A stretch of DNA of 64,000 bases, taken from Phycisphaerae bacterium. GTDB taxonomy: Bacteria; Planctomycetota; Phycisphaerae; SM23-33. A program made the translations under genes and the position numbers. The notes below the pieces were generated by a model. It searched no databases and had not been told where the DNA came from. It saw nothing but the letters and a program-made list of their open reading frames with translations. Positions 3,105 through 61,341 of this stretch are shown one piece after another; positions within the stretch are counted from its first letter, which is position 1, and each line of letters starts with the position of its first letter. The stretch is from positions 1,883-65,882 of the forward strand of contig JAFGJE010000233.1 in NCBI GenBank assembly GCA_016929245.1, given 5' to 3'.

Positions 3105-3227
3105 TGTCATCCTGAGCGTGGCGAGTCTTCGAGCGAAGTCGAAGGATCTTACGCCTGCAAACGTGTGAGATTCTTCGACTTCGTCGCAGGTTCGCCACGC
3201 TCACAAGCGACTCCGCTCAGAATGACA
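3105..3227. repeat. large palindromic repeat element, copy 1 (TGTCATCCTGAGCG ... CGCTCAGAATGACA termini with nested inner hairpin)
   Basis: 14-bp terminal inverted repeats with one mismatch. Inner stem CGAAGTCGAAGGATC / GAGATTCTTCGACTTCG. A related copy lies at 61246-61341. The track ORF 3069-3272 (translation ...CHPERGESS...) is the spurious reading of this element. Confidence 0.6.
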
Positions 3228-3336
3228 ACTATGGGGGCGCCGGAAAAAATTGTCAAACACCGGCGATTTTAATCTGCCGCTGTCCAATGGATATGCGCCT
3301 TGCCAAAAGGACCGGAGCTGACAGAAGAACAAACGA

Positions 3337-4101
3337 ATGAATTCATCACGAAACAGGGCATTTACGTTGATAGAACTTCTCGTTGTGATCGCGATTCTTT
3401 CGCTGTTGGTCTCCATTTTACTGCCGTCTCTGACCTCCGCCAAAGAGTTAGCCCGTCAGGTGCAGTGCATGACGCAACTCCACACGATCGGCATGGCGGA
3501 GAATTATTATATCCAGGACCATAACGAACAGATTATTTACACCCGCGGCGAATATTTCACCCCGTACTGTTCCTTTTGGGCTTCGTTTATCTGGGAACAA
3601 ATGCACGGCAATCTCACCCAGATTCATCAGAACGACATTCGCCTGGATTCCGTGGAATTTCTGCGCTGCCCGACTACACCTTCGGACGGTTATCAAGGCT
3701 GGGCCGATTCTCCGCGAGGCGGGCAGCCGCGCCTGCCCTATACTACGTCTGGTATTTCGTATGAAGGCATTACGTATGCACGAAATTCATTTCATTATCC
3801 TAATGTTCTTTATGCGGATTCCAGGAACCCTGACCCTCAGACGATGGTTTCGATTAACGACTTCCAGGCTCCGGGGGATACCCCGGATGTTACAAATGGG
3901 CTCCATTTTCATGCCACCACGTGGACTCGTAATTGGGATATAGATGAACCTTCGAAACGCGTCGGCGGTCAACGATGCGTCGATTATCGGCATGTGGGAT
4001 TGGATTCGTTGAATCTCCTTCTCTGGGACGGCCATGTGGACAACGTGAAGGAATCCGTTTGGGATAATTACCACATGACGATCAAAGACGATGAAGATTA
4101 A
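3337..4101 (+). CDS. prepilin-type N-terminal cleavage/methylation domain protein (DUF1559 / H-X9-DG family pseudopilin-like)
   Basis: N-terminus MNSSRNRAFTLIELLVVIAILSLLVSILLPSL is a class III signal peptide plus pilin-like helix. C-terminal ...LLLWDGHVDNV is an H-X9-DG-like motif. Confidence 0.85.
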   Translation: MNSSRNRAFTLIELLVVIAILSLLVSILLPSLTSAKELARQVQCMTQLHTIGMAENYYIQDHNEQIIYTRGEYFTPYCSFWASFIWEQMHGNLTQIHQNDIRLDSVEFLRCPTTPSDGYQGWADSPRGGQPRLPYTTSGISYEGITYARNSFHYPNVLYADSRNPDPQTMVSINDFQAPGDTPDVTNGLHFHATTWTRNWDIDEPSKRVGGQRCVDYRHVGLDSLNLLLWDGHVDNVKESVWDNYHMTIKDDED

Positions 4102-4173
4102 TAATTTCCCGAAATCCATTTTCCGACTCATCGCTCAGAAATATCAACTCGTACGGAAAGACGAAATACGATT

Positions 4174-6657
4174 ATGAAGCGTACATTCTATATTCTTGTC
4201 CTTGTATTGATGGCTTCTTCGCGGGTATGGGCGTTGGAATTCGTGGCCGACGCACAGCCGCGGACGGTGATCGTGATTCCAAACGAGCCGTTGGAAGTGG
4301 TTCAAGCGGCGGCGGAAGAGTTGCAATATCACATTCAAAAGGCGACCGGCGCGACACTGCCCATCGCCAAAGAATCCCAAAAGCCTGAAGCAAAAGGGTA
4401 CGTCTACCTGGGCTCAACCCAGGCGGCGAAGCAGGCGGCCTTGCTGAAAAGATTCAAGCCGAATGCATTTGTCATCAAAACCGCCGGCGATACCCTCTAT
4501 ATCGCCGGCGATGATTCCGCGGGAAAAGTGTTTGGTCTTTTAAGCGCCAACACTACCCGCGTTGGTACGCTCCTGGGAGTGTATGAATTTCTGGAAACAA
4601 AACTCGGGGTTCGCTGGCTGTGGCCGGGTGAAGTCGGAGAAGTAATTCCTCACAGAGAAACGATTCGCGTGGAGGACTTTATGCAAACCGGCGGAACCAG
4701 ACTCATAAACAGCCGTTTTAGAGACGGAAGGAACATGAATCTGAAAGCCGGCTGGACAAACGACGCCAATCGACTCAAGTTTCTGAACGAGCAGAGCCGT
4801 TGGCTGCGCCGCCATCGTTTCGCCATCGTCGAGGACGACACCAGTGGACACGCCTATACTCGTTATTGGAAAAGGTTCGGCATAACACATCCGGAATATT
4901 TCAATCAGCTTCCGGACGGTACAAGAAGGCCGGAGGGGTATAGCGGCAATATTTCCATGTGTGTTTCTCAGCCGAAGCTCTGGAAGCAAATCGTGCGGCA
5001 GTGGCGGCAGAGTCGCCAAAAAGGTTCGGCGCGGCGCTCTTTGCTTTGTATTGCGGAAAATGATACGTCGGGCAAATGCACCTGCCCGAATTGTATGGCC
5101 TGGGATGCGCCAGATCCCGATCTGAAATTCCCTTATCACCAGAGGCTGGAGCGGGCCCGTAAGGCATTCATGGAAAAAGACCCCGATTGGGTGAAATATC
5201 TTGGTTCCTTGTCCGACCGATACGCGAAGTTTTATTTGGAGGTCCAAAAGGAGGCAAGGAAATATGATCCGAAGATCAAGGTTCTCGCCTATGCCTACGG
5301 GAATTATCGAAAACCGCCCATCAAAACCAAACTAAATGACGGTATTATCATCAAGAATGTTCCAGGAATAAGTTTTTCCGCGCCGGCAGAAACCTGGACG
5401 AAGTTTCAGGACAATTGGAAGGACTGGCGTCAAACCGGATGCATTCAGGTTCTTCGGCCGAATTACACGCTTACCGGCCATAATATGCCTATAAACTACG
5501 CGAAAACATTCGGGAAACACTTCGCATTCGTCGCCCGAGAAGGGCTGTATGGAACGGACTTTGATTCGTTGACCGGCCAATATGCCGCTCAGGGATTATC
5601 CCTGTATACCATCGCTCGGATGAACCATCGCCCGGATTTGCCCGTCGAGGCGATCCTGAAGGAGTATTATGACGGCTTCGGGCCCGCGGCAGATGCGATT
5701 AAAGCCTATTGGGATTTCTGGCAGGATCTACCCCGGGAATTAACCTCGACAAAGAGAAATGCGATCCGCGCCAGAAAGAAGATTCCCCATTCGCAATGGC
5801 GTCAAACGTACTGGCGGAAATTTGTGCTTTTCACGCCGGAGCTTTTTACGCCCGAACGATTCGAGCTGGGCTATGCGTTATTGGAAAAAGCCCGGACCGC
5901 CGCGGGCGAGGATAAACGGGTTCTGGCGAAAATCGACTTTCTGAAAAAAGGTCTCCGTCACGCGGAATTGACCGTGCAGGCGCAGAAGGCGGTGGATCAA
6001 TATCAATATTTCAAAACCGGCGATATTCACTCGATCGTAGCGGCCGTGAAACAACTGGACGCCTACCGCCGCCGGATCGAACACCATGGCATTTCCAACA
6101 TGGGGCTTCTTCGTGCCTCGGAAGCATTGTTCTGGCCTTTCGCGGACATCGAAGTCGCCGAGAAATCCGCCAAGCCGTTGCCCGAAGTCTGGAAGTTCAA
6201 ATGGGACCCGGAGGATCAGGGTTTACAAGACGGCTGGGCGGCCAGGGAATATGACGACGAGGTGTGGGATTCCATACGTACGGATGCACCCTGGGAGTTA
6301 CAGCCCATCGGGGAGGCCTGGAAGCGCGCCCACGGACAGGACTATGATGGTTACGCCTGGTACAGAACTTCGTTCACAATCGAGCCTGGTGAGTCTTCGG
6401 ATCGCAAGCGAAAGGTCTTTCTTATTTTCGGAGCGGTGGACGAAGCCTGCGTGATTTGGGTAAACGGACAGAAGGTATTAGACAGGCCGTTTCCCTATCA
6501 GGACAACCGGAACTCCTGGCGGGAGCCGTTTACGGTGGAGATCACCCCATATGTTGTCGCCGGCGAAAACAGCCTAGCCGTTCGCGTGGAAGACCGCGGC
6601 GGGCAGGGTGGAATTTTCAAGCCGGTCTGGTTGTCCGTGATGAATGAAGGCAAATAA
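4174..6657 (+). CDS. secreted 827-aa glycoside-hydrolase-like protein with C-terminal galactose-binding-like jelly-roll domain (GH2 sugar-binding-domain type)
   Basis: Signal peptide MKRTFYILVLVLMASSRVWA. Cys cluster CTCPNCMAWD. C-terminal YDGYAWYRTSF...VFLIFGAVDEACVIWVNGQKV resembles the jelly-roll sugar-binding domain of family-2 beta-galactosidases. The N-terminal catalytic family is not assignable by eye. Confidence 0.65.
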   Translation: MKRTFYILVLVLMASSRVWALEFVADAQPRTVIVIPNEPLEVVQAAAEELQYHIQKATGATLPIAKESQKPEAKGYVYLGSTQAAKQAALLKRFKPNAFVIKTAGDTLYIAGDDSAGKVFGLLSANTTRVGTLLGVYEFLETKLGVRWLWPGEVGEVIPHRETIRVEDFMQTGGTRLINSRFRDGRNMNLKAGWTNDANRLKFLNEQSRWLRRHRFAIVEDDTSGHAYTRYWKRFGITHPEYFNQLPDGTRRPEGYSGNISMCVSQPKLWKQIVRQWRQSRQKGSARRSLLCIAENDTSGKCTCPNCMAWDAPDPDLKFPYHQRLERARKAFMEKDPDWVKYLGSLSDRYAKFYLEVQKEARKYDPKIKVLAYAYGNYRKPPIKTKLNDGIIIKNVPGISFSAPAETWTKFQDNWKDWRQTGCIQVLRPNYTLTGHNMPINYAKTFGKHFAFVAREGLYGTDFDSLTGQYAAQGLSLYTIARMNHRPDLPVEAILKEYYDGFGPAADAIKAYWDFWQDLPRELTSTKRNAIRARKKIPHSQWRQTYWRKFVLFTPELFTPERFELGYALLEKARTAAGEDKRVLAKIDFLKKGLRHAELTVQAQKAVDQYQYFKTGDIHSIVAAVKQLDAYRRRIEHHGISNMGLLRASEALFWPFADIEVAEKSAKPLPEVWKFKWDPEDQGLQDGWAAREYDDEVWDSIRTDAPWELQPIGEAWKRAHGQDYDGYAWYRTSFTIEPGESSDRKRKVFLIFGAVDEACVIWVNGQKVLDRPFPYQDNRNSWREPFTVEITPYVVAGENSLAVRVEDRGGQGGIFKPVWLSVMNEGK

Positions 6658-6738
6658 TCCCACAATCGGCCAAATGCTATGATAGATACAATAGACAGCA
6701 GACGCAATCATACGCCGCGCGGGAAGCGATGTATTACT

Positions 6739-7446
6739 ATGCGAGAGAAGACGACAAGAAAGGATGTTCGGCAGATTGAACTGCCTGAAGTGAAGCAAGG
6801 TTTCACCCTCATAGAATTATTGGTCGTGATCGCGATCCTTTCGCTGCTGGTCAGCATTCTTGTACCGAGTCTCACCAAGGCCAGGGAACTCGCCAAAATG
6901 GTCGTCTGTGAGACGCAGTTGCGGAATATCGGATACGCCCTGGGTTTTTATGCGGACGACAATGGGGAATATTTACCCTCCGGCCGCGTCAGGAGAAACA
7001 AGGGGTACTTCTGGTGGTGCCTGTTGTATCCGTATCTGGATTCCAGGGATTACGGGGATAACCATTGGCCCGACCTGGAGGTGTTTCTCTGTCCCACGCA
7101 GGAAGCGCATTACACGCCGGGATCGATTTGGTCTCACTGCGATTACGCCGACAGTTACTGGTTCGGGTATGATCGGGCGCCCAATTCGGCGCCGGCGCCG
7201 GAGTACGATCCCGCGCAGGCGAAGATTTCTCAGGTTCTCCATCCCGCCGATACCGCCTATGCCGTCGACTCGAAAAGCGGGGTCCTTGGCGGCCCGTATG
7301 TATACGGCGCCACGGATCCGCGCGCGGACTTTCGTCATCTCGACGGCGTGACGGCGAACCTGCTTTTCGTCGACGGGCACGTGGAAAATCTTGACTATAG
7401 CGAGGCGGCCGACGTCGACTTCGGCGAAGACAATATTCAACGATAG
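6739..7446 (+). CDS. prepilin-type N-terminal cleavage/methylation domain protein (DUF1559 / H-X9-DG family), second copy
   Basis: ...KQGFTLIELLVVIAILSLLVSILVPSLTKARE with C-terminal ...LLFVDGHVENLDY. Start chosen at the internal Met (MREKTT...). The track ORF begins at 6679. Confidence 0.8.
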   Translation: MREKTTRKDVRQIELPEVKQGFTLIELLVVIAILSLLVSILVPSLTKARELAKMVVCETQLRNIGYALGFYADDNGEYLPSGRVRRNKGYFWWCLLYPYLDSRDYGDNHWPDLEVFLCPTQEAHYTPGSIWSHCDYADSYWFGYDRAPNSAPAPEYDPAQAKISQVLHPADTAYAVDSKSGVLGGPYVYGATDPRADFRHLDGVTANLLFVDGHVENLDYSEAADVDFGEDNIQR

Positions 7447-7510
7447 GCCTTTTCAAAGGTCGGCACGGCCTTTTTGAGGTTCGCCACTTGCTCCAATATG
7501 AAAAGAAAGG

Positions 7511-8785
7511 ATGATTCCTGTGAGAGTACCTAAACAGCATTTCTCCTTCGTATGTCTGATGTGGATGTTTGCGGCGTCTTTGGGGTTCGCCGATCTGCCG
7601 GCTGTGAAAAACGTTGAAGCAAAAGACGGCCGGGTTCTGGTCAACGGTAAACCGTTTTTGCCCATCGGCGTCTACCACGCCGCCCATCATCACAAAGCCG
7701 TTCCCGAAGTGGCTGCCAAGGGATTCAACACCGTGCAAGTATTCGGCGGGACGCCGGAAGCATTAAAAGAAGATCTGGATAATGCGTATGCAAACGGCAT
7801 GTATGGTTTTGCGGCATTACACGGTCTTTGTGAAGATTTAACCCGGCTGGAAAAAATCGTGTTATTGAATCGCGACCATCCCGGTTTGCTGGTCTGGTAT
7901 CTGCATGACGAACCGAATTCGCGTGTCGGAGGTCCTGAATATAAAGACAAACCCAAACACGAACATCCGTATAAAAGGCCTCCGGAGAAACTCAAACCCG
8001 CGTATGACCTGATTAAAAAACTGGACCCCAAACATCCGATCTGGGTCAATCTTGCCCATGGATGGGTAAAGGATTACGTCGCCTATGCACCCATCTGCGA
8101 TATCCTTTCCGGTGACGTGTATCCCGTTCCCAAGTACGGCCTGGAATTTGTGGCAACCTATGTGAATCTTGCAAAGAAGGGTGGTGCGGGCAAAAAAGTC
8201 CTATGGTCGCCGCTCCAGATGTCCCCCGTCCGTCCCGACATGAAAGGCGACGATCGTCCCCCGACGATGAAGGAAGTTCATTGTGCGACGTATATGGCGA
8301 TCGCACACGGCACTACCGGCCTTATGTATTATGCGTTCAATGAAGAAGGATGGGAAGTGGAAGGCTGGCCTTGGTCGAACTGGCGCACCAGCACATCCGC
8401 CCCGGCCTACTGGGCGCAGTGGTCGGACCTGACAGCCGAGTTGAATTCCCTCGCACCGTTGCTCCTTTCGCCGACGATGATAACCAGAATCGGAATACGC
8501 GATTTCAAGAGTACCGACGAAAAGGACGCCGCTAAAAGATCCGACCTGCACCTGGCGTTGAAAAAAGGCAAGGAAAGCTACCTGTTGATCGCCGTGAACG
8601 GCAGCGACAAGACCATCACAGCCTCGATTACACTACCGGAAGAGGTGAGAAAAGCCGACACAACCGCGGCTGTACGTTTTGAGAACCGATTACAGCCGTT
8701 GAAAAACAACATCATTTCGGACCAGTTCGGTCCGCACGAAGTTCACCTGTATGAGATTCCGTTCGCAAGGCCTGTTTCCAGATAG
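7511..8785 (+). CDS. secreted putative glycoside hydrolase (TIM-barrel, cellulase-like superfamily)
   Basis: Signal peptide. Motifs FNTVQVFGG and LLVWYLHDEPN resemble the NEP catalytic-acid region of GH5/GH42-type (beta/alpha)8 hydrolases. Follows the second pseudopilin-like gene. Confidence 0.55.
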   Translation: MIPVRVPKQHFSFVCLMWMFAASLGFADLPAVKNVEAKDGRVLVNGKPFLPIGVYHAAHHHKAVPEVAAKGFNTVQVFGGTPEALKEDLDNAYANGMYGFAALHGLCEDLTRLEKIVLLNRDHPGLLVWYLHDEPNSRVGGPEYKDKPKHEHPYKRPPEKLKPAYDLIKKLDPKHPIWVNLAHGWVKDYVAYAPICDILSGDVYPVPKYGLEFVATYVNLAKKGGAGKKVLWSPLQMSPVRPDMKGDDRPPTMKEVHCATYMAIAHGTTGLMYYAFNEEGWEVEGWPWSNWRTSTSAPAYWAQWSDLTAELNSLAPLLLSPTMITRIGIRDFKSTDEKDAAKRSDLHLALKKGKESYLLIAVNGSDKTITASITLPEEVRKADTTAAVRFENRLQPLKNNIISDQFGPHEVHLYEIPFARPVSR

Positions 8786-8790
8786 TCTCG

Positions 8791-9861
8791 TCACTGTCGC
8801 AGAAGGCAGGCGTGTTGGTGGGTGGGGTCCTTGGTGGTCGGCTTTAAGGTAGGAATTTCACACGTGCAGCGTTTGACTACGCGGTGTGTTTTGCCTTCGA
8901 TGCGAATTTCGGACGTTTCGGCGGCGGACATGCCCTCGGCCTTTTGGCGCGTCAACGGGCAACGCGGGTGGAACGGGCAACCCGTCGGTGGATTGATCGG
9001 CGAGGGCACTTCCCCCGGCAGGCGGATGCGATTCTTGCCCGCGCCCGGCTGGGCTACCGGGACGGCGGAGACCAGCGCCTCGGTGTACGGATGCTGCAGC
9101 CGGCCCGATTGACCCAGGACGATCTCCTTACCGGCGACTTCCACGATCTTGCCCAGGTACATCACGGCAACGTCGTCGGCGAAATGCTCCACCACCGCCA
9201 GGTTGTGGGCGATGAAAAGGTAGCTTAATCCCAGTTCCTCCTGCAGGTCGCTTAACAGGTTGAGAATCTGGGCCTGGATCGACACGTCCAGCGCGCTGAC
9301 GGGTTCGTCGCAGACGATGAAGTCCGGCTGACTCGCCAGCGCCCGCGCGATACCGATGCGTTGCCGCTGCCCGCCGGAGAACTCGTGCGGGTAGCGGTTG
9401 ACGTATTCCGGGGCAAGCCCGACGCGCTGGAGCAGCTCCGCGACGCGATCACGACGCTCGGAGCGAGACAGCGAGAAATGCACCTTCAGCGGTTCGGCGA
9501 CGATCCCGCCGACCGTCATGCGCGGGTTCAGCGAACCGGCGGGGTCCTGGAAGATCATCTGCATCCGCCGGCGGAGTTTTTTTAACTTTCGGCTTGAGAG
9601 AGAAAATATATCTTGTCCATCGAATTGAGCCTGACCCGCCGTCGCGGGGATCAGACGCAGCAGCGTTCTGCCGACGGTAGTCTTGCCCGAACCGCTCTCG
9701 CCGACCAGTCCGAGTGTGCGGCCTCGCTGGAGCGAAAAGCTCACGCCGTCGACGGCCTTGACGACCTTGCCGTGACGCAGAAATCCCCCGCCGACCGGAA
9801 AGTGCGTCTTGAGGTCGCTGACCGTCAGGAGCAGGTTGTTGGTGGTGTCGATCATTATCAT
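8791..9861 (-). CDS. oligopeptide/dipeptide ABC transporter ATP-binding protein (OppF/DppF-like)
   Basis: Walker [13 protein letters not shown] signature LSGGQRQR, Walker B DEPVSALD, and the C-terminal oligopeptide-ABC TOBE-like extension ...GCPFHPRCP... Confidence 0.9.
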
Positions 9862-9985
9862 TCAATGTCGAATGACGAAATTCGAATGACGATTGAATAT
9901 TGAATAATCCAATAACGAAAAAATTCCGTCCTTTTTCGTTTTCGAGCATTCGATATTGATTCGTCATTTATCATTCGAAAATTCG
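9862..9985. repeat. AT-rich 124-bp intra-operon spacer carrying four copies (two direct, two inverted) of a GAATGACGA(A) motif
   Basis: TCGAATGACGAAATTCGAATGACGA ... TTCGTCATTTATCATTCGAAAATTCGTCATTCC lies between the two ABC ATPase genes. Local GC is far below the flanking coding DNA. Confidence 0.4.
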
Positions 9986-10981
9986 TCATTCCTTCGGATA
10001 TCCTTCCGCTTCCCAGCAGGCGACGCAATGGCCCGGCGCGATTTCGCGCAGGGGCGGTTCCTGGGTTTGGCATCGTTTTTTATCGCAGCCGACGCTACAG
10101 CGCGGGTGAAACTTACACCCGCTGGGGAAATGCAGCGGATTGGGCACGGTTCCGGGGATCGTCTTCAGCCGTTCCTTCGTCTCACCGAGTTTCGGCACCG
10201 ATTTCAGCAGGCCTCGCGTGTACGGATGCAACGGCTGGGCGAAAAGGTTTTCCACACTCGCGGTTTCGACGATCTTCGAGGCGTACATCACCGCCACCTG
10301 GTGGGCGGTCTGCGCGACGACGGCAAGATCGTGCGTGATCAGCAGAATCGACAGGCCTTCGTCGGCTTGCAATTGGTTCAACAGGTCGAGAATCTGCGCC
10401 TGGATCGTCACGTCGAGGGCCGTCGTCGGTTCGTCGGCGATCAGCAGCTTCGGGCTGCACGACAGCGCCATCGCGATCATGATGCGCTGCCTCATGCCGC
10501 CGGAAAGCTGGTGGGGATAGGCGTCCAACCGCCCGGCTGGTTCGGCGATGCCGACCTTTTTCAGCAGTTCCATCGCCAGCCCGCGCGCGTCGCCGGCCGA
10601 GAGCTTGCGGTGCAGGCGAATGGCTTCGATGATCTGGTTGCCGCACGTGAAGACGGGGTTCAGCGAGGTCATGGGTTCCTGGAAGACCATGCCCACCTGC
10701 CCGCCGCGCACCTGGCGCATCTGCTTTTCGGAATATCCCAGCAAATCCCGGCCTTGTAAAACCACCTCGCCGTTTTCGATCCGCCCCGGCGGGCAGGGCA
10801 CGAGCCGCAGGATCGAAAACGCGGTAACGCTCTTCCCGCAGCCGCTCTCACCCACCAGCGCGAACGTTTTCGCCGCCGGAACGTCAAAACTCACCCCATC
10901 CACCGCGCGCAGAACACCGTCGTCCGTATGGAAACACGTCCGCAAATCGCGCACGGACAGCAGTGGTTCGCCAGGGATCAT
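9986..10981 (-). CDS. oligopeptide/dipeptide ABC transporter ATP-binding protein (OppD/DppD-like)
   Basis: [17 protein letters not shown]..., Walker A GESGCGKS, signature LSGGMRQR, C-terminal ...GCKFHPRC.... The true ATG at 10979-10981 overlaps the TGA of the upstream permease as ATGA. The 611-aa track ORF is an artefactual 5' extension. Confidence 0.9.
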
Positions 10982-11886: not shown

Positions 11887-11904
11887 ATTCGTTCGTATCG
11901 GTTC

Positions 11905-12879: not shown

Positions 12880-12886
12880 TATTCCG

Positions 12887-15043: not shown

Positions 15044-15087
15044 GTTTCCTTATGACGAAAGGGGCTCTTGAATTTGTACGTGTACCA

Positions 15088-39435: not shown

Positions 39436-39509
39436 ACCCCGGTAGCTCAGCAGGATAGAGCATCGGTTTCCTAAACCGAAGGTCAGAGGTTCGAGTCCTC
39501 TCCGGGGTA
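39436..39509 (+). tRNA. tRNA-Arg (anticodon CCT)
   Basis: Cloverleaf folded by hand. Acceptor ACCCCGG/CCGGGGT, D-arm GCTC/GAGC, anticodon stem TCGGT/ACCGA with loop TTCCTAA, T-arm AGAGG-TTCGAGT-CCTCT, discriminator A. CCA is not encoded. Confidence 0.9.
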
Positions 39510-50512: not shown

Positions 50513-50574
50513 TTCCAACACCGCCAAACGGCAAGCCGATTTGAATATCGGCTTGCCGTTTGGCGGTGTTGGAA
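50513..50574. repeat. conserved palindromic terminator-like element, copy 3 (perfect 25-bp arms)
   Basis: TTCCAACACCGCCAAACGGCAAGCC-gatttgaatatc-GGCTTGCCGTTTGGCGGTGTTGGAA followed by AAAGAGG. Lies 58 bp after the cinA stop. Confidence 0.6.
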
Positions 50575-51081
50575 AAAGAGGAAAATATTATTTTTCAGTC
50601 AACAGGTGTTGAAATGTGCGCAAAAAAAAGGCGACCCAGGTACAGCGGGATCGCCCTCTATTGAAAAAACCGCCTCGCGGGACGGGTTATTGCGGATGGG
50701 GAACGGAAAAGCGCCTTTCGGCGCGCAGTGGTACAGAAAAACGAAACCGTCCTATGTTCAGGGATTCAACCGCCTTCGGTACAACCAACTCTCACCGCCG
50801 GTGCGCCCTCCATAGCCGGTGTCCCTTTCGCCTCCAGAATCAAAAATCGCACGACTGCCCAACGTTTGTGCAATGCAACGGAGAACTCATTATACGCCAA
50901 AAGGGGATTTTGTCAAGGGAACTCATGCAATTCCTCGGAAATGTTCGATAGAAATACGGTAGGGTATCCGCGCCGTTCTCGGCCGGCGGAGGCCTTGTGT
51001 CGTGAATGAACGAGTATTCCGGTTTTGCGCGACGGGTGAGAAAATTCTCGCGCCGGACTGGACTTTTCCCGAAAGCGTGGT

Positions 51082-53362: not shown

Positions 53363-53380
53363 GTCGGTTGACGGGTTGAT

Positions 53381-53513
53381 TTGTTAACTGGTTAACTGGA
53401 AAAGCATTACAAATTTTTCTCGCAATAAAAGCTTTGGGAATTTTCCATATTGGTTTGATCATGAATTTCTGTATTTTTTCCCGGTTAACCAATGAACAAA
53501 GTAACCGGTTAAC
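53381..53513. promoter_or_regulatory. AT-rich intergenic region with four GTTAAC palindromes (tandem GTTAACTGGTTAACTGG; inverted GGTTAACC...AACCGGTTAAC) upstream of ddl
   Basis: Motif copies at about 53384, 53391, 53485 and 53508. Sharp GC drop relative to the flanking genes. Confidence 0.3.
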
Positions 53514-53645
53514 AGAATATAGGGTAAAACCTTTACACGGTTATTTCCGATAATAAACTATTAAGAAGCACCGCACGATCAGCCGCGTTGGGCTGCCGGG
53601 AGGAATGCAACGAACGCGTGCGGAAATACGGATGGGGTGATAGAC

Positions 53646-54617
53646 ATGGAAGTCTTTGAGATGACAGAAGCTGTGAAACGAGAGCTGTACGACATCACGG
53701 TGTTGATGGGAGGTCCGTCCAAAGAACGCGAGGTGAGTTTACTCAGCGGCGCCGCTGTCGCCAAAGCCCTGCAGGAAGCGGGTCATAAGGTCACGCGGGC
53801 CGACATCACCCCGCGGGACACCTCCGCGCTGGACCGTCCGGGTATGGACATCGCGTTTATCGCCCTGCACGGGGAGTTCGGCGAGTCCGGCGAGCTTCAA
53901 CAACTCTGCGAGGAGCGGGGTGTGCGATATACCGGTTCCCCGCCGCGCGCCAGCCGGCTGGGCATGGACAAAGCCGCCACCAAGCAACTCCTCCTTCGCT
54001 CCGACATCCACACGCCCGAATGGATGATTATCGAAAAATTTCACTCCCGCAAGGACGTGGATCGCTGGGTGAAGGAAATCGACCCGCCCGTGGTCGTCAA
54101 ACCCGTCAACGACGGTTCCAGCCTGGACGTGTACATCTGCCCCGACGCCGCCGGCCGGAATGAAGCCCTGGAAGAACTACTGGACACCTATGGCCGGGCG
54201 ATGCTCGAAGAGTATGTCGAAGGCAGGGAACTGACCGTCGGCATCCTCGGCAGGGCGGCGCTGCCGATTATTGAAATCGTCCCCTCGCGGAAATTCTTCG
54301 ATTACAAAGCCAAATACGCCGACGACTCCGGCACGGAATATATCATCAATCCGAATCTGCCCGACGACGTCGCCCGACGCGTGAAGGTCGACGCGATCAA
54401 GGCCCACGACATTCTCGGCTGTCGGGATTTTTCGCGCGTGGACTTCATTCTCGATCACGAAAACGTTCCGCAATTCCTGGAGATCAACACGATTCCGGGA
54501 TTCACGAGTCACTCCCTCGTGCCGATGGCCGCCCGCCAGTTGGGCATCGGTATGCCCGACCTGTGCGATCGGATCGTCCGCATGGCGATGGAACGACAAA
54601 TGTGCCCCAGCGCGTAA
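53646..54617 (+). CDS. ddl: D-alanine--D-alanine ligase
   Basis: ...ITVLMGGPSKEREVSLLSGAAVAKAL... then the ATP-grasp core ...ELTVGILG.... The track ORF starts at a GTG at 53637. The ATG at 53646 or 53661 is more likely. Confidence 0.9.
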   Translation: MEVFEMTEAVKRELYDITVLMGGPSKEREVSLLSGAAVAKALQEAGHKVTRADITPRDTSALDRPGMDIAFIALHGEFGESGELQQLCEERGVRYTGSPPRASRLGMDKAATKQLLLRSDIHTPEWMIIEKFHSRKDVDRWVKEIDPPVVVKPVNDGSSLDVYICPDAAGRNEALEELLDTYGRAMLEEYVEGRELTVGILGRAALPIIEIVPSRKFFDYKAKYADDSGTEYIINPNLPDDVARRVKVDAIKAHDILGCRDFSRVDFILDHENVPQFLEINTIPGFTSHSLVPMAARQLGIGMPDLCDRIVRMAMERQMCPSA

Positions 54618-54696
54618 GACGCTTCTCACGTTACTTTCCACCCATATCGGATACCCGGCGCTTTATTCTTTTCGTGTTGGTTTTTATGATACTTCC

Positions 54697-55854
54697 ATGA
54701 CCGACGACAAAAATCCGTCCGCGACGGATGCTTTCCATTCCCCCGTCGTGGATCGCGTTCGGAATGATCCCGAACCGAATCGCTGGATTCTCCCGCGGGG
54801 GGAATTGGTTTTACCGCGCGTGTTCGGATTCTGCCGCGGGGTGAAACGCGCCTTGGCGCTGGCGGCCCGCGCGACCGATGAACACGCGCGTCGCGTCGCG
54901 CCAGGTCGACTGGTTCTGCTGGGGGAGATCATCCACAATCCCTGGGTCAACGCCTACTTCCAAAATCGCGGCGTGACCATTCTGACCCGCCCGCAACGGC
55001 AGGACGTTGAAGAACATGTCACGAGCGAAGATTGCGCGATTATCCCCGCGTTCGGCGTGCCGTTGCCCATCGAGCGACGCCTGCGCGACATCGGCTGTCA
55101 GATCGTGGACTGCACCTGCGGCGACGTGCGACGCTTATGGACCTGGAGCGAGCAGGCGGCCCGCGACGGATACGGCGTGATCGTGTTCGGCCGTTCGGAG
55201 CACGACGAAACCGTCGTGACGAAAAGTCGCCTCACCGAAGCGGGCGGGGTGTATCTGGTGCTCGAGACCCTTCCGCAGGTGGAAACATTTGGAACCATGC
55301 TCCGCAATGGAGTCCGTGACGCGGAATTTCAGGCGTCGTTTTCCCCCTCGACCACGAACGCCGAGAGTATGAAGGCCTTTGAGACGCTCGCCCAGGTCAG
55401 CCAGACGACCATGCTTTATCATCACACCCAGCGCGTGCGGGAGATTCTCACAGCCGCGTACTCTGCCCGTTTTGGGGAGACGGCGGCGGAACGACTGCGA
55501 TTTCAACCCACCGTCTGCCGTGCCACGCAGGACCGGCAGGACGCTGCCGTCGAGTTGTGTCAGTCCCGGTGCGATCTGGTGATCGTCGTGGGGGGATTCG
55601 GTTCGTCCAACACGCGCCACCTGCACGAACTGGCCCGCCGGTACGCGCCGGCGTATCTCATCGAAAACGCCGAAGCGATCCAGTCGGCGGAGCAGCTGCA
55701 GGCCTACAACCGTCAAGCCGACGCCGCCGAAACGATCCGCGACTGGTTGCCGAATAAGCGACCCCTTCACGTCGGTCTGCTGGCCGGCGCGTCCAGCCCG
55801 GAAATCGTCATCGGACAGGTGCTCCAGCGCCTCGCGGAATTCCTCACCCATTGA
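54697..55854 (+). CDS. ispH: 4-hydroxy-3-methylbut-2-enyl diphosphate reductase IspH/LytB (with insertions, 385 aa)
   Basis: Three Cys-containing motifs typical of IspH (...FGFCRGVKRAL..., ...DCTCGDVRRLW..., ...VVGGFGSSNTRHL...) and ...IIHNPWV.... Confidence 0.85.
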   Translation: MTDDKNPSATDAFHSPVVDRVRNDPEPNRWILPRGELVLPRVFGFCRGVKRALALAARATDEHARRVAPGRLVLLGEIIHNPWVNAYFQNRGVTILTRPQRQDVEEHVTSEDCAIIPAFGVPLPIERRLRDIGCQIVDCTCGDVRRLWTWSEQAARDGYGVIVFGRSEHDETVVTKSRLTEAGGVYLVLETLPQVETFGTMLRNGVRDAEFQASFSPSTTNAESMKAFETLAQVSQTTMLYHHTQRVREILTAAYSARFGETAAERLRFQPTVCRATQDRQDAAVELCQSRCDLVIVVGGFGSSNTRHLHELARRYAPAYLIENAEAIQSAEQLQAYNRQADAAETIRDWLPNKRPLHVGLLAGASSPEIVIGQVLQRLAEFLTH

Positions 55855-55866
55855 GCAAAAGTCAAT

Positions 55867-56835
55867 TTATTCCCAGATCACATCCCCAGCCGGGAATACC
55901 GGGCCGTCGGTGCAGCAGAGTTTATACGACCAGCCTTGTTCGCCGGCGTCGCGGATTTTCACCACGCAGGACTGGCAGGTGCCCATACCGCAGGCCATGT
56001 GACGCTCGAGCGAGAGGTAACATTCGATATCCCGCGCGATGCAGATTTCACCCACGCGCCGCATCATGACTTCCGGGCCGCAGGAATAGACGACCAGTTG
56101 ATTCCCGGCTGCAGCGCCTGAATCCAGCCATTGCTCGAACGCCTGGGTGATGAATCCTTTGACGCCCAACGAACCGTCGTCGGTGGTCAAAACCGTTGGT
56201 GTCTCAGCCTGGGCGAATTCCGCTGTGCAAAGGGTGGGCGTTCCATCCGTCGCCGCCGGCTGGACGCCTTTCGCCAACGGCAGCAATTCCCTGCTTCGCG
56301 CCCCGCAGAAGGCTGTCGCTTTTTTCCCCGCCTCCTGAAGCGCGTGAGCGAGATAGATCATCGGCGGAATTCCCACGCCTCCACCGACCAGCGCGGCGGC
56401 GGGTTTGGCGTCGATGATCGGCAGGGGATGTCCTAACGGACCGAGAACGGACAGCTCCTGTCCCGCCCGGACATTCGCCAGCCGGCGCGTTCCCGCACCG
56501 ACCGTGCGGTAGAGGATTTCCAGTTCCACCGCGCCCGCGTCGTCGCGGCGTCCCGCCAGCGACAAAGGCCTGCGCAGCAGCGGTTCGGTTCCCATAAGTT
56601 CCGGCTGGGTGAATTGCGGCGGTTTATTTTCGGGCCAATCGACGACGGCTGCGCCGAGTTGCGGCGCGGGGGGACGACACTGCAACTGCACGAACTGCCC
56701 CGCCCGACTGGGCGGAAACTCCGTCAATCGCAGCCGTAAGCGATAATGCTCATCACAAACGGCGTCGTTGGCAGCCACCGTCGCTACATACACACCCCGC
56801 GAGGATAAGGTTTCATTGCACATGATCCGCATCAT
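55867..56835 (-). CDS. FAD/NAD(P)-binding oxidoreductase with C-terminal 2Fe-2S cluster (PyrK-like dihydroorotate dehydrogenase electron-transfer subunit family)
   Basis: Ferredoxin-reductase-like fold. C-terminal Cys cluster ...CGMGTCQSCVV.... Confidence 0.7.
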   Translation of the reverse strand: MMRIMCNETLSSRGVYVATVAANDAVCDEHYRLRLRLTEFPPSRAGQFVQLQCRPPAPQLGAAVVDWPENKPPQFTQPELMGTEPLLRRPLSLAGRRDDAGAVELEILYRTVGAGTRRLANVRAGQELSVLGPLGHPLPIIDAKPAAALVGGGVGIPPMIYLAHALQEAGKKATAFCGARSRELLPLAKGVQPAATDGTPTLCTAEFAQAETPTVLTTDDGSLGVKGFITQAFEQWLDSGAAAGNQLVVYSCGPEVMMRRVGEICIARDIECYLSLERHMACGMGTCQSCVVKIRDAGEQGWSYKLCCTDGPVFPAGDVIWE

Positions 56836-56956
56836 ACCAAAGACAATATGACTTTGCGCGGTGGGAATCTTTTCACTCCGCGCATTTACTCAAGAATTAA
56901 TCTCGACAGTCGGGTGCCGTGGTTCGCGGAGCGCAGCGGAGCAACCACGGCACCCT

Positions 56957-58006
56957 TTAATGACGCACGGTGGCGGTGGCTGCCAGTCCCAGATCGGAAG
57001 TCCGCCCCGCCTGGAGATAGTGATACCCCAATCCGGCGATCATAGCCGCGTTGTCGGTGCAGTATTTCAAAGGAGGACGTCGCAATGTGCAGCCGAGTTT
57101 CTTCGCCAGTGTTTCCGCGGCCGCGCGCAGGGCGGAGTTGGCCGCCACGCCGCCGCCCAGGAGAATCGTCTTCGCGCCGGTCTGTTGGACGGCCCGTCGG
57201 ATTTTCGTCGTCAGCACCTCCACGACCGCCTGCTGAAAGCTCGCGGCGATGTCGTGAATTTCCTGCCGCGAAAAATGCTCCAGCCCGCGCGGATGATCGT
57301 ATTGCATACCCGGCACGCCGTTGACGTGGTACAGCACGGCTGTCTTGATTCCGCTGAAACTGAAATCCAGCGATTGCCCTTTCAAGAGCGTTCGCGGAAA
57401 ACGAACCGCGGCGGGATCGCCTTCTTTCGCGGCCCGGTCGATCACGGGCCCACCGGGGTATCCCAGTTGCAGAATACTGGCGACCTTGTCGAATGCCTCC
57501 CCGGCGGCGTCGTCGATGGTCGTGCCGAGAAGGTTCATCTCGATCGGCCCGGTGCAATGATACAGGGACGTGTGTCCGCCGCTGGCGATCAGCGCCACGG
57601 CGGGGTAGTTGATGGGTTCCTCGTCCAGCGCCGGCGCGCAGGCGTGGGCGTAGACGTGGTTGACGCCCACGAGCGGAACGTCCCAGACCCACGCGAGCGT
57701 CTTGGCGGCCATCAGCCCCACCAGCAGCGACCCGATCAATCCCGGCTGATGCGTCACCGCGACGGCGGAGATGTCCCCGGGATCCACGCCGCCGGCCTGC
57801 AGCGCCTCGGCGATGACGGAATTGATCTGCTCCACGTGGGCGCGGGACGCCAGTTCCGGAACGACCCCGCCGAAACGGGTGTGCAGGTCGATCTGACTGG
57901 CGACGGCGTTGGCGAGCACCTCGCGTCCGTCGCGCACCAGGGCGCAGGCGGCTTCGTCGCAACTGCTTTCCACCCCCAGGAGAATCGTATGGTTTGGAGG
58001 TGTCAT
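56957..58006 (-). CDS. tsaD: tRNA N6-adenosine threonylcarbamoyltransferase TsaD (Kae1/YgjD)
   Basis: ...ILLGVESSCDEAACALV...NHVYAHA...SGGHTSLY...VSGGVAANSALR... are all TsaD hallmarks. Overlapping 499-aa and 378-aa track ORFs are rejected. Confidence 0.95.
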   Translation of the reverse strand: MTPPNHTILLGVESSCDEAACALVRDGREVLANAVASQIDLHTRFGGVVPELASRAHVEQINSVIAEALQAGGVDPGDISAVAVTHQPGLIGSLLVGLMAAKTLAWVWDVPLVGVNHVYAHACAPALDEEPINYPAVALIASGGHTSLYHCTGPIEMNLLGTTIDDAAGEAFDKVASILQLGYPGGPVIDRAAKEGDPAAVRFPRTLLKGQSLDFSFSGIKTAVLYHVNGVPGMQYDHPRGLEHFSRQEIHDIAASFQQAVVEVLTTKIRRAVQQTGAKTILLGGGVAANSALRAAAETLAKKLGCTLRRPPLKYCTDNAAMIAGLGYHYLQAGRTSDLGLAATATVRH

Positions 58007-59418
58007 TTCGTGTTTTTATCATCCGTTTTCGCGCGGCGTTCCTGTTGCTCCAGTTTTTTGCGATACGCCTCCTCGGCGCGACGATTCTTCGCCGCCAGGG
58101 CGTCGAGAATCGCTTCCATGTCCCTGGGTTTGTTCAGCAGCGCCTCGGCCATCATCAGTTGCGGGTCGGCGTTCCAGGCCCGGGGCGGCGGGGAAGATTG
58201 TGTCGCCGGACGCGTCGTCGAGGATTTCTCCGGGCGCGGCAGGACGCATAATTCCCGGCGCCGTTTTCGGATGGCTGTCGCCTGGTCGTCGCGGAGTTTC
58301 AGCGTCACCTGTGGAGCGACGCCCCATTCCTTCGCGCCGCGTCGTCGCTGGATCGGCTGATCCGGCGGGACGAGGAACTCCGCGGTCGTCAGATGGATCT
58401 GCCCCAGCTCATTCGGCAGGCGGATCATGGTCTGCACGCACCCCTTGCCGCGCGTTCGCCGGCCCAGAAGAACCGCCCGGGTGTTGGCCGCCAGCGCCCC
58501 GGCGACGATCTCCGCCGCGGACGTGGTTTTCTCGTCGATCAGCACGACCATCGGCACGTCGGCGTAGGGGGTGTCGGCGTGGGCGCGATGCGTTTGCCGT
58601 TCCTCGTCCCGCGCCAGAACATGCACGATCGAACCGTCGCGAAGGAACAGGTCCGCCACAGCCACCCCGTCGGACAACACCCCGCCGGGATTGTCGCGCA
58701 GGTCCAGAACGATCCCGTGAATCTCCCCCAGGCTCCGAAGGACGTTTCCCAATTGCCGGGCGGTGTCGGAGCAGAATTCGGGAATCCGCAGGTAGTACAC
58801 CCCGACTTTTTCCCCCAGCCGATACTGCCACATCCCCGTCGCGTCGCGCTGCAGGCCTTGCACGGTCTCGACGGGATACGCTTCGGGCGTCAGCCGCACC
58901 GGTCGCGATTGGCCGGTGTCGGCGTCCAGAATCGTCAACGCGACGCTTTGACCCTTCCGCGGCGAAAGGAAGGAACGAATCTCTTTCGGCGCGAGGGTTT
59001 GAATCGCCTTCTCGTTGATGGCCGTGACGCGGTCGCCGCGAAACAGCCGGGCCTTGTGGGCCGGGGAATCGGGCCGCGGGCCGAGGATGAGAAGCCCTTT
59101 CTCGTCGAGCGTCCATTCCAGTCCCAGATCCCGCCCGGCCCCCAGAATGCGGTCCGTCAGCGCCTGGGCGTTTTCGTGCGATACATACGTGGAGAATTCA
59201 TCGAGCCTGCCTACCATCCCACGAACGGCGGATCGCTGGAGTTCCTTCGCGTCGACGGGTTGATAATACTGCTCGCGGATCACGCGGTACGTCTGCTCGA
59301 CCGGCCCGAATTCGCCCCGCCCGCCGACGCGCGGCACGCGGGGCTGGCGCCAGACCAGCAGCAGCACAGCCGCCATCGCCAGCAGGATCGCGATCCAGAT
59401 AAGGTTTCGTCTCGGCAT
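58003..59418 (-). CDS. carboxy-terminal processing protease (S41 family, CtpA/Prc-like) with PDZ domain
   Basis: N-terminal TM anchor. ...LDLRDNPGGVLSDGVAVADLF... plus ...EKTTSAAEIVAGAL...RTRGKG... is the S41 catalytic Ser/Lys region. Confidence 0.85.
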   Translation of the reverse strand: MPRRNLIWIAILLAMAAVLLLVWRQPRVPRVGGRGEFGPVEQTYRVIREQYYQPVDAKELQRSAVRGMVGRLDEFSTYVSHENAQALTDRILGAGRDLGLEWTLDEKGLLILGPRPDSPAHKARLFRGDRVTAINEKAIQTLAPKEIRSFLSPRKGQSVALTILDADTGQSRPVRLTPEAYPVETVQGLQRDATGMWQYRLGEKVGVYYLRIPEFCSDTARQLGNVLRSLGEIHGIVLDLRDNPGGVLSDGVAVADLFLRDGSIVHVLARDEERQTHRAHADTPYADVPMVVLIDEKTTSAAEIVAGALAANTRAVLLGRRTRGKGCVQTMIRLPNELGQIHLTTAEFLVPPDQPIQRRRGAKEWGVAPQVTLKLRDDQATAIRKRRRELCVLPRPEKSSTTRPATQSSPPPRAWNADPQLMMAEALLNKPRDMEAILDALAAKNRRAEEAYRKKLEQQERRAKTDDKNTK

Positions 59419-59646
59419 GGGAGGGAAGTTCCTGTAGGAAGGATGCTAGCAAAAAGCCCCCCAATGGGCAAGTTGCGCCACAATCTGTTTTTTGACCACA
59501 GAGGCACAGGGGACACAGAGTCAAGAAGGCAGAAGATAGAAGCTGGGAGTTAGAATTCGTCCGCTTATTCAGAGCTCAATATGAAGCTCCCGGCTTCTAA
59601 CTTCTTGTTTTCCTCCGTGATCTCTGTGCCTCTGTGGTTAAAGTTT

Positions 59647-61056
59647 TTATTGCGGCGCGTGCATGTACCCCGGGGCCGCCTGCACGAAGCGGGTGCATTC
59701 CGGGCGGAAGACCAGGTCCACGATCCCCGTCGGGCCGTTTCGCTGTTTTTCGATTATCAATTTCGTCAGGCCCGTCGCTTCGTAGGTGTCCTCACCGCGG
59801 TGATAATAATCCTCGTTGTGCAGCAGCGCCACGACGTCGGCGTCCTGCTCGATCGATCCCGATTCCCGCAGGTCGCTCATGCGCGGCACGTGCGTGGGGC
59901 GGTCGGCTGGGCCTCGGTTGAGCTGGGCCGCCAGCACCACCGGGATATCCAGTTCGCGCGCCAGGGCCTTCATCGAACGGCTCATCGTGGCGATCTGTTC
60001 CTGGCGGTTGTCCGCCCGGCCGTAATAGGTCATCAACTGAAGATAGTCGATAAACACCGCCTGGATGTCGAATTGGCTTTTCATGCGCCGGGCTTTGGCG
60101 CGAAGTTGCAGCGGGGTCAGCGTGGAGGAATCGTCGATCAGCAGCGGCGCCTGCTCCAGCGCTCCCGCGGCCGTCTGAAGCTCCGTCCAGTCCTCCGGGG
60201 AAATCGTCGTCCGGCGCAGATTCCGCAGATTGAATTGCGCATGGCTGGCGAGCAGTCGCTGGGTAACCTGCATCTTGGACATTTCCAGCGAGAAAAACGC
60301 GATGGGCCGTTTGTCCACCACGGACATGTATTCGGAAATGTTCAGCAGCAGCGCGGTTTTGCCCATGGAAGGCCGAGCCGCCAGGATGATCATTTCGCCG
60401 CGCTGGAACCCAGCCGTCAGTTCATCCAGTTGCGTGAACCCGGTCGCCAGGCCGGTGATGGCTTTGCCTTCGTGCTCCTGGAGAAGCTCGAACGTCGAAT
60501 GCAGCAGTTCCTTCAGGCTGGTCGTTTCTCCGGTGATCTGCTGCTGGGCGATCTCGAAGATCTGCTGCTCCGCGCGGTCGACGACGGCCTGGGCTTCGTC
60601 GGGCGAGTCGTAGGCCTCCTCCAGGATATCCCGGCTGACGCGAATCAGGCTTCGCAGAAGGGCCTTGTCGCGGACGATGGCGGCGTAGTATTCGACGTTG
60701 CTTACCCCCGGCACGCCTTCGGCGACGGTGACGAGATACTCCACGCCCCCGACGGCATCGAGCTGTTTCGTGCGTTCCAGTTCCGCGCGCAGGGAGACCA
60801 GGTCGATGGGTTTACCCCGGTCGCGCATCGTCAGGAGGGTGTCGTAGAGGATCACGTGCGCTGGGCAGTGGAAGTATTCGCTTCGGAGAAACTGCACGAC
60901 GACGTCGATGCAGACGGCGTCGAGGATCATCGCACCCAGGACGCAGGCTTCGGCTTCCACGGAACTGGGCACGACGCGGGCCAGTTCGTCGTCGAGGCGC
61001 ACCGGAGCCCGATCCGATGTGTATTGCCCAGTCGATTGGATGTCCATAGCCATCAA
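59647..61056 (-). CDS. dnaB: replicative DNA helicase DnaB
   Basis: N-terminal ...SVEAEACVLGAMILD.... Walker A ...ARPSMGKTALLLNI.... RecA-like C-terminal domain. The antisense 558-aa track ORF is rejected. Confidence 0.95.
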   Translation of the reverse strand: MMAMDIQSTGQYTSDRAPVRLDDELARVVPSSVEAEACVLGAMILDAVCIDVVVQFLRSEYFHCPAHVILYDTLLTMRDRGKPIDLVSLRAELERTKQLDAVGGVEYLVTVAEGVPGVSNVEYYAAIVRDKALLRSLIRVSRDILEEAYDSPDEAQAVVDRAEQQIFEIAQQQITGETTSLKELLHSTFELLQEHEGKAITGLATGFTQLDELTAGFQRGEMIILAARPSMGKTALLLNISEYMSVVDKRPIAFFSLEMSKMQVTQRLLASHAQFNLRNLRRTTISPEDWTELQTAAGALEQAPLLIDDSSTLTPLQLRAKARRMKSQFDIQAVFIDYLQLMTYYGRADNRQEQIATMSRSMKALARELDIPVVLAAQLNRGPADRPTHVPRMSDLRESGSIEQDADVVALLHNEDYYHRGEDTYEATGLTKLIIEKQRNGPTGIVDLVFRPECTRFVQAAPGYMHAPQ

Positions 61057-61245
61057 GCGCCCTCCGTAGCATCAACATTCCGTCGGATCAGCCATTCCCT
61101 CGTGGACGTCACCGGCGGGGAGATTTCTCTTTTGTTGTTATTGAACGAAGACACTACGATATTCGCATCCGACGAAAATTGCAAGAACTCCATAGTCCAT
61201 CGCGGGAAGAAAGTGAGTGAGAATCTCTATTGTGAGTACCCTATA

Positions 61246-61341
61246 CTGTCATCCTGAGCGGAGCGAAGCGGAGTCGAAAGACCTTACGCCCACCTACCCG
61301 TGAGGTCCTTCGACTCCGCTGCGCTCCGCTCAGGATGACAG
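61246..61341. repeat. large palindromic repeat element, copy 2 (CTGTCATCCTGAGCGGAGCGAAGCGGAGTCGAA ... TTCGACTCCGCTGCGCTCCGCTCAGGATGACAG)
   Basis: 33-bp arms with one mismatch around a ~30-nt centre. Same TGTCATCCTGAGCG termini as the element at 3105-3227. Sits in the divergent dnaB / DUF721 intergenic region. Confidence 0.6.

Follow-up and report, generated by a model that had tools for sequence, protein, structure and literature searches.

The window analysed here is a stretch of 64,000 nucleotides from a Phycisphaerae bacterium (contig JAFGJE010000233.1), and it carries two palindromic elements, called copy 1 and copy 2 below. Copy 1 (3105-3227) lies between the gene of a PEP-CTERM protein and a prepilin-type gene on the same strand, while copy 2 (61246-61341) lies between a dnaB-like gene and a divergently transcribed DciA/DUF721 gene, about 190 nt upstream of the start (61056) of the dnaB open reading frame (ORF). 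We read both elements, with a probability of roughly two in three, as gene-less head-to-head doublets of tagged hairpins (arms) that are passengers at their present sites and kin of a unit in which two such arms bracket the gene of a small GIY-YIG nuclease that would act on them. The features in question are given below with their coordinates in the window; loci outside the window carry the prefix L, and MAG stands for metagenome-assembled genome.

3070-3104, no strand: left half of the outer palindrome round copy 1, TGTGCGACAACATTTTCTGG...; this module also flanks the element of L122
3105-3148, plus strand: copy 1 left arm, with the TGTC tag at 3105-3108 and ATCCT (3109-3113) pairing with AGGAT (3143-3147)
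within 3105-3148, plus strand: loop of the copy 1 left arm, a long-loop variant, GAGCG TGGCGAGTCTTCGAGCGAAGT CGA
3149-3168, no strand: copy 1 spacer, with complementary ends TTACG..CGTGTGA
3169-3227, minus strand: copy 1 right arm, TGTCATTCTGAGCG...CGAAGAATC on the minus strand, TCT/AGA type, with an extra 16-nt insertion relative to the left arm
3228-3262, no strand: right half of the outer palindrome round copy 1, CCGGAAAAAATTGTCAAACA
61247-61283, plus strand: copy 2 left arm, TGTCATCCTGAGCG GAGCGAAGCGGAGT CGAAAGACC, including GCGAAGC
61284-61303, no strand: copy 2 spacer, TTACGCCCACCTACCCGTGA
61304-61340, minus strand: copy 2 right arm, TGTCATCCTGAGCGGAGCGCAGCGGAGTCGAAGGACC on the minus strand
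3069-3272, plus strand: spurious 67-aa ORF (..CHPERGESS..PLRMTT..), almost wholly copy 1
59647-61056, minus strand: dnaB-like ORF, divergent from the DciA gene
61388-61415, plus strand: DciA promoter of sigma-70 type, TTGACC-16-TATCCT, with extended TG
61492-61875, plus strand: DciA/DUF721 gene, 100% identical to a Phycisphaerae MAG protein

A preliminary description of this DNA had noted two palindromes with common termini and differing centres, and both points were borne out. A motif scan of the window located TGTCATCCTGAGCG exactly at 3105-3118 (+), 61247-61260 (+) and 61327-61340 (-), and the right terminus of copy 1 (3214-3227, -) reads TGTCATTCTGAGCG, with one mismatch. When up to two mismatches were allowed, six matches were obtained against a shuffle mean of 0.52, with 0 of 100 dinucleotide shuffles reaching six; the remaining two matches (38286 and 43137) are due to chance and fall within coding sequence, and copies 1 and 2 are the sole members of the family in the window. 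The termini had also been called identical, which is accurate for three of them, the mismatch at the fourth being compensated within the same arm: the left arm of copy 1 is of the CCT/AGG type and the right arm of the TCT/AGA type (AGAAT for AGGAT, 3169-3177, GATTCTTCG), so that TCT for CCT is a covarying pair and not decay. In an alignment of the two copies both arms match, and the centre and the arm insertions differ.

Copy 2 was confirmed as the near-perfect palindrome between divergent dnaB and DciA genes that it had been taken for, with two arms of 43 nt, 93% complementary, on either side of a 10-nt centre and a fold into a single hairpin (-49.6 kcal/mol, z = -14.8). Copy 1 consists of nested inverted repeats (-40.9 kcal/mol, z = -7.3), and because its right arm is of the TCT/AGA type and carries a 16-nt insertion relative to the left arm, it is a heterodimer. 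Its core is enclosed in a longer, degenerate palindrome of about 193 bp (3070-3262), whose outer flanks (3070-3104 and 3228-3262) are complementary to each other and recur round the element of L122, at a different locus of a related MAG; the whole composite of element and outer module is thus common to two loci, and around a tenth of the copies of the family, copy 1 among them, sit inside such a much longer outer palindrome. The TGTC tag starts all four arms of the window, and the AT...AT stem ends are present in both arms of copy 1, the closing side being AC instead in copy 2. The arm loops measure 21-40 nt, i.e. they are long-loop variants. The core of the copy 2 spacer, ACGCCCACCTACCCG, recurs in the spacer of an element in another related MAG (L025). 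Since the ORF at 3069-3272 consists almost wholly of copy 1, the label "spurious" given to it earlier is reasonable, and it should stay unannotated.

The idea of a two-member family holds for the window only. A family scan with one genome per species, which demanded two exact termini 60-90 nt apart, returned at least 114 loci from many phyla. Among the matches listed, the record titles name the phyla Bacteroidota, Acidobacteriota, Gemmatimonadota, Chloroflexota, Planctomycetota, Verrucomicrobiota, Eremiobacterota, Firmicutes, Actinobacteria, Spirochaetes, Patescibacteria, Proteobacteria and Nitrospirota, the taxa in these titles including Hymenobacter, Flavobacterium, Acidobacteriota, Gemmatimonadota, Chloroflexota, Pirellulales, Phycisphaerae, Chthoniobacter, Eremiobacterota, Clostridia, Bifidobacterium, Treponemataceae, Patescibacteria, Proteobacteria and Nitrospirales. 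Within the same set, nAG-CGAAGGAYC beside the termini is near-universal though the pattern did not demand it, the centres are variable and lineage-specific, and copies have the head-to-head dimer form, with the tags outward, that both window copies show.

A long open frame runs through 27 of 135 doublets, compared to 1131 of 1350 random positions, and the doublets are therefore mostly intergenic; both doublets of the window are best read as intergenic passengers. BLAST matched the element to no plasmid and no cultured phage, and only 6 contigs of IMG/VR contained it, indicating that the element is not plasmid- or phage-borne. Searches for strings of the element sequence in full-text literature returned unrelated primer matches only. 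In L025, L046, L049 and L064 the contig begins or ends at a doublet or within about 70 nt of one, and the contigs of L121 and L122 start a few hundred nt upstream of dciA; repeats of this kind may break metagenome assemblies.

The canonical arm can be written TGTC / ATCCT-GA-GC-GNA-GC-GA-AGGAT / C and folds as a minimal hairpin of the form ....(((((..((...))..))))).. with five outer pairs. Its stem comprises 5 Watson-Crick pairs, tandem G.A and 2 GC pairs, closed by a 3-nt GNA loop and followed by a C(T/C) tail. Covariation was assessed with a motif that does not demand complementarity, in loci chosen by their protein only. The stem triplets were fully complementary in 147 of 154 arms and fell into six Watson-Crick types (CCT/AGG 55, TCC/GGA 26, CCC/GGG 22, TCT/AGA 20, GTC/GAC 20 and GCT/AGC 4), with -TGC...GCA- as an additional form in a wider comparison of arms, and each of the four bases was seen at the N of the GCGNAGC core. 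Within one unit the two arms frequently carry unlike triplets, as in copy 1, and the conserved structure is therefore the hairpin inside each arm and not only a helix between the arms. The oligonucleotide d(GCGAAGC) is said, after Hirao and colleagues, to be the classic case of a DNA mini-hairpin of great stability, containing a sheared G.A pair, and such stability would fit a role of the arms as single-stranded DNA.

Clustering of ORFs in the scan loci, among the matches listed, brought up a small GIY-YIG gene in a few of them (L004, L029, L046 and L039), and in L004, L046 and L039 this gene lies between the arms; in L039 these are TGC/GCA-type arms that form tandem repeats to either side of it. 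The gene-bearing unit measures 350-450 bp, with two arms tightly bracketing a gene of about 95 codons. In the reverse direction, 80 metagenome loci were fetched solely by similarity to four seed GIY-YIG proteins. An arm motif was found within 400 nt of the GIY-YIG gene in 66 of these 80 loci, and outward arms on both sides in 41, the background of the motif being 39 in 168 kb. After units at least 95% identical had been dropped, 55 assessable loci remained, with arms on both sides in 28, on one side in 14 and on neither in 13, compared to control windows from the same loci with both in 0 and one in 24 of 578. The nearest tags are found from 43 nt upstream and from 31 nt downstream of the gene match (modes 58 and 64 nt), and some units have a right arm that overlaps the last codons of the gene. 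Inverted arms also directly bound the ORF in further cases fetched by protein identity, L207 (a Chthoniobacter MAG, with an inverted repeat about 46 nt long) and L208/L209. Neither REPs (repetitive extragenic palindromes), nor REPINs (REP doublets), nor bacterial MITEs (small transposable elements with inverted repeats) were found linked to GIY-YIG proteins in the open-access literature, although a prior description elsewhere is possible.

The arms of the window resemble those of such units closely. Over 38-41 nt, the arms of copy 2 are 90-97% identical to GIY-YIG-flanking arms of L200, L152 and L176, with values of 92-94% for the left arm (L200, L176 and L152) and 95-97%, over the same 38-41 nt, for the right arm (L200 and L152). 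Similar gene-bearing units usually have similar flanks and mostly occupy orthologous positions in related genomes, so that inheritance of the gene looks vertical, at a stable site, as for RAYT genes (REP-associated tyrosine transposases). Compared with the flanking DNA in L163, L199 and L196, the unit of L169 has the opposite orientation, as expected from recombination between inverted arms. A separate observation concerns L032:650-1600 (Flavobacterium soyae), where two tandem copies of a tRNA gene and a distant GIY-YIG-like ORF occur without tagged arms.

The encoded protein of about 95 aa consists of the GIY-YIG domain alone (Pfam E 1e-16 to 1e-18) and matches PDB 1zg2 and 1ywl (UPF0213), then SLX1, which places it in the UPF0213/prokaryotic Slx1-like group. 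Residues Y, Y, R, H and E are invariant across the four seed proteins, and we take these to be the positions expected for the catalytic residues of GIY-YIG enzymes. In L200 (1106-1402), D replaces the otherwise invariant H of the R...EH motif (VAQDRRG), and this gene, judged by its sequence, may be decaying while its arms are kept. The stand-alone prokaryotic Slx1-like GIY-YIG proteins have been described as minimal, mostly vertically inherited and presumably acting in repair (Dunin-Horkawicz et al. 2006, PMC1564403). The protein found here agrees with that group (UPF0213; 1zg2, 1ywl) in family, in size and in having the minimal catalytic domain only; what differs is the setting, as PMC1564403 presents likely repair enzymes of unknown function and does not mention flanking repeats.

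In their anatomy the elements belong to a known kind of repeat. The CGTC-tagged REPs, as set out by Di Nocera, De Gregorio and Rocco (2013, BMC Genomics 14:522, PMC3733652), carry a terminal CGTC tag, often TGTC, on stems of 8-9 bp that almost always begin A-T, T-A, with a loop of 4-5 nt and a CCA tail; they mostly form head-to-head dimers with the tags outside and spacers of 20-100 bp, some of them complementary-ended, some dimers lie inside longer palindromes, and they occur in five phyla. Their authors sought transposase genes flanked by CGTC repeats, found none and concluded that the repeats "apparently lack a dedicated transposase". The elements described here share with them the unpaired, outermost C/TGTC tag (the form also seen in the GIY-YIG loci), the A-T/T-A stem start, the head-to-head doublets with spacers of 20-100 bp that are often complementary-ended, the occasional position within longer palindromes, and a multi-copy, mostly intergenic occurrence in several phyla with no adjoining transposase. 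On the strength of the tag, the stem start and the dimer anatomy, the window elements therefore fit the CGTC/TGTC superfamily as head-to-head dimers. In contrast to the CGTC REPs, the stem here is ATNNN followed by tandem G.A and a GC stem, with a GNA triloop or long structured loops and a C(T/C) tail, the phyla exceed the five of PMC3733652 and include Planctomycetota, and the GIY-YIG link does not appear in that paper. Because of the departures in stem, loop and tail, the elements were filed as a candidate new family or variant, judged by the descriptive text of that source, which reports four families; they represent a known kind of repeat, the REPIN-type doublet of CGTC/TGTC-tagged REPs, met here in a variant form and in a new lineage. 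A further likeness lies in the supplement of PMC3733652, where CGTC-3 of R. palustris appears as VIAGLDPAIH; the back-translation of this peptide gives GTC-AT...AT-C, in the same frame as the VILSEAKDL of the arms here.

Traces of turnover were found at the arms. In one filled/empty pair, the resident arm found intact in L197, L206 and L191 is interrupted in L194 and L195 by a doublet of 145 bp together with 8 further nt, and tandem arrays of arms occur in L040, L042 and L024. At L161 (20-115), an alpha-proteobacterial-type CGTC doublet (CGTCATGGCCGGGCTTGTCCCGGCCATCC ... GGATGCCCGGCCCAAGGTCGGGCATGACG) stands where a GIY-YIG unit would have its left arm, which hints that the classical CGTC families share the GIY-YIG link. 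The left-arm replacement in L161, the filled sites in L194 and L195 and the tandem arrays suggest that arms are preferred sites for the gain of further arms or doublets. In the arm-end repeats, one side carries two to five tandem units of the terminal 20-26 nt (tag plus half hairpin), and the other side often has them in mirror image (L040:2611-2765, L042:5899-6048, L024:4009-4140 and L039:5880-6600, those of L039 flanking the GIY-YIG gene). Another arrangement is seen at L044:6308-7225 (an Eremiobacterota MAG), where at least six tandem doublets follow each other every 136 bp or so; the intervening 33-nt pieces all have the same sequence, and the site is therefore a tandem duplication of a doublet with its flank and not a CRISPR-like array with spacers. 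Position -1 of the copies is mostly a pyrimidine (C 56 and T 34 of 123) and position +1 usually a purine. Target-site duplications at the element ends, which had been proposed as a check, did not emerge: duplications of 2-9 bp were found at chance level only in 125 copies.

The element plan is an arm of the form 5'-(Y)TGTC | AT-NNN | GA-GC-GNA-GC-GA or a longer loop | N'N'N'-AT | C, with two outward-tagged arms separated by a lineage-specific spacer of 20-70 nt. This anatomy, the covariation in the arms, the spread over phyla, the intergenic bias, the presence/absence polymorphism and the physical link to GIY-YIG genes are shown by the data above; how the nuclease would act on the arms, and by which route copies would spread, we infer as follows. 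Arms would fold as hairpins in single-stranded DNA, or the doublet would extrude as a cruciform. Slx1-family enzymes are structure-specific, and a structure-specific GIY-YIG nuclease could recognise tag and hairpin and nick or cut there. Repair synthesis templated by another copy might then place arms and doublets into the broken site, the expected outcome being dispersal, tandem arm arrays, nested palindromes and arm replacement with no target-site duplication.

Several observations weigh against this reading. GIY-YIG enzymes hydrolyse DNA and form no covalent intermediate, and therefore cannot transpose DNA alone; the copying step is conjecture, resting on one filled/empty example. The association was tested on close relatives of seeds that had themselves been found beside arms, and 13 of the 55 GIY-YIG units are without an arm by the motif used. 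The gene itself looks vertically inherited rather than mobile. For the window in particular, no GIY-YIG gene was found within the 64 kb, and the single arms, being of the long-loop form, fold unconvincingly alone under nearest-neighbour DNA parameters.

The best of the rival explanations is that the arms and doublets are older and that the GIY-YIG gene is a homing-endonuclease-like gene that inserts into the doublet spacer and parasitises the repeats. An ORF that occupies the whole space between the arms is what such an insertion would produce, and gene-less doublets far outnumber gene-bearing units among the matches listed; in addition, the Verrucomicrobia-type inner extension CTCCAATATCC of gene-bearing units turned up in no gene-less doublet when such forms were sought, so that an origin of gene-less doublets as deletion derivatives is unsupported. 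However, orthologous gene-bearing units have flanks as diverged as the unit itself, which points to vertical descent and not to recent homing, the protein of 95 aa lacks a DNA-binding domain of the type found in sequence-specific GIY-YIG homing enzymes (PMC1564403), and the arms beside the gene are hot spots for the gain of more arms or doublets. We consider homing unlikely.

Another explanation is that the elements are locus-specific or RNA-level regulatory hairpins, acting as a terminator, an mRNA stabiliser, a small RNA or a modulator of the dnaB/dciA promoters. The hairpins are very stable, copy 1 begins 81 nt past a stop codon, and REPs in other bacteria act on mRNA stability. In addition, ATGACA faces outward at both ends of copy 1 (3083-3110 and 3222-3250) and forms, with A/T-rich hexamers, weak sigma-70-like matches in which it takes the -35 place. 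The evidence from dciA speaks against such a role. The DciA promoter lies outside the element, its -35 being 47 nt downstream of copy 2, and it is kept upstream of dciA in five related loci, with and without an element: in L122 (DciA 79% identical) an element of another subtype lies about 50 nt before the conserved promoter, and the dciA upstream regions of L121, L123/L124 and L125/L126 (DciA 77-69% identical) contain none. As relatives without the element keep the promoter, copy 2 is not a required part of it, though it might affect the dnaB or the DciA promoter, as had been suggested. This comparison also answers the earlier suggestion to look for presence and absence in orthologous regions, and with a variable position and at least 114 loci the elements form a repeat family rather than a pair of hairpins fixed at two loci. 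No T-tract terminator was found at the window elements, an Rfam search of the window (gathering and E-value thresholds) gave for them only sub-threshold, junk microRNA-hairpin matches, and elements of the family occur in every gene-orientation context. Regulation as the general explanation is thus quite improbable, while secondary exaptation at single loci is possible. With regard to the locus itself, the conserved promoter of the Phycisphaerae relatives (L121-L126) reads TTGACC-N16/17-(TG)-TATCCT followed by CCCTTC, and it is kept while the upstream neighbour of dciA varies (dnaB, a tRNA gene, a LacI-type or a PBP-like gene). The sole gathering-level Rfam match in the window is a tRNA gene at 39436-39509 (70.9 bits).

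A third possibility is that a RAYT, an IS200-like tyrosine transposase, or some other ordinary transposase moves the elements, which would then be REPINs, and that the GIY-YIG gene is incidental. The doublet anatomy is the same as in the REPIN-RAYT system (Bertels and Rainey 2011, PMC3116915), which likewise has inverted REP hairpins with a spacer that form one long hairpin and a dispersed unit, and a small repeat-flanked gene that looks vertically inherited at a stable locus; RAYTs, moreover, are single-copy genes whose product works in trans, so that one would seldom be met next to a repeat. The tag here, however, is YGTC and not GTAG, one arm consensus extends across many phyla, and the partner is a hydrolytic GIY-YIG nuclease and not an HUH tyrosine transposase. 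A search for transposases flanked by CGTC repeats found none in PMC3733652, as mentioned above, and no IS200-like ORF was detected by phmmer in the at least 114 loci or the window, a weak test that used one IS200 TnpA sequence. Clustering of neighbouring genes over at least 114 loci yielded no transposase either; ECF (extracytoplasmic function) sigma factors, short-chain dehydrogenases and RsmG-like methyltransferases recurred as common genes only, and the cargo between arms, GIY-YIG apart, consisted of ordinary genes between separate doublets and chance motif pairs. GIY-YIG was the only recurrent neighbouring family among the matches listed, and its association with the arms is far above controls. 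We therefore give mobilisation by a transposase little credence.

The elements had been likened to both MITEs and REPs, and the second half of this comparison stands: they are REP-like dispersed palindromes that share with bacterial MITEs such as Correia and ERIC the short, palindromic, multi-copy and intergenic form and the presence/absence polymorphism, and they differ from strict MITEs in having neither target-site duplications nor an insertion-sequence or transposase parent, and in having self-folding hairpins as ends. That they are DDE-type MITEs with terminal inverted repeats of 14-25 bp is scarcely tenable: the termini do read 5'-TG...CA-3' and the repeated end motifs of L040, L042 and L024 resemble multi-site transposon ends, but 2-9 bp duplications do not exceed chance, no parent with a transposase was found, whether between the arms or next to them (among versions with a gene, GIY-YIG is the only one), and the conserved ends covary as internal hairpins. 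The consensus of the elements does not fit attC-like sites, hammerhead and other ribozymes, CsrA sites, or LexA or DnaA boxes.

REPs are among the commonest non-coding repeats in bacteria, and to our knowledge a partner enzyme, RAYT, is known for the GTAG class of REPs only. In 2013 the CGTC/TGTC class was expressly described as having none, and the association with GIY-YIG genes offers a testable answer. Tentatively, and at somewhat less than even odds, we propose that the UPF0213 Slx1-like nuclease is the dedicated partner enzyme of the CGTC/TGTC-tagged REP superfamily, which would make it a second, non-transposase REP system present in many phyla. For the window itself the message is modest; what the present analysis adds is a probable partner enzyme for a class of repeats. 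Many spurious small ORFs (..CHPERSEGS.., ..SLRMT..) are accounted for by these data, as probably are some contig breaks in metagenomes, and a clue is given to the function of UPF0213/Slx1-like proteins, whose structures are solved and which have no known role. The findings suggest a nuclease-and-repair route of repeat spread for which no transposase is needed. If true, the proposed partnership of nuclease and repeats would account for the fact that these REPs "lack a transposase" and would give a function to a large family of unknown function.

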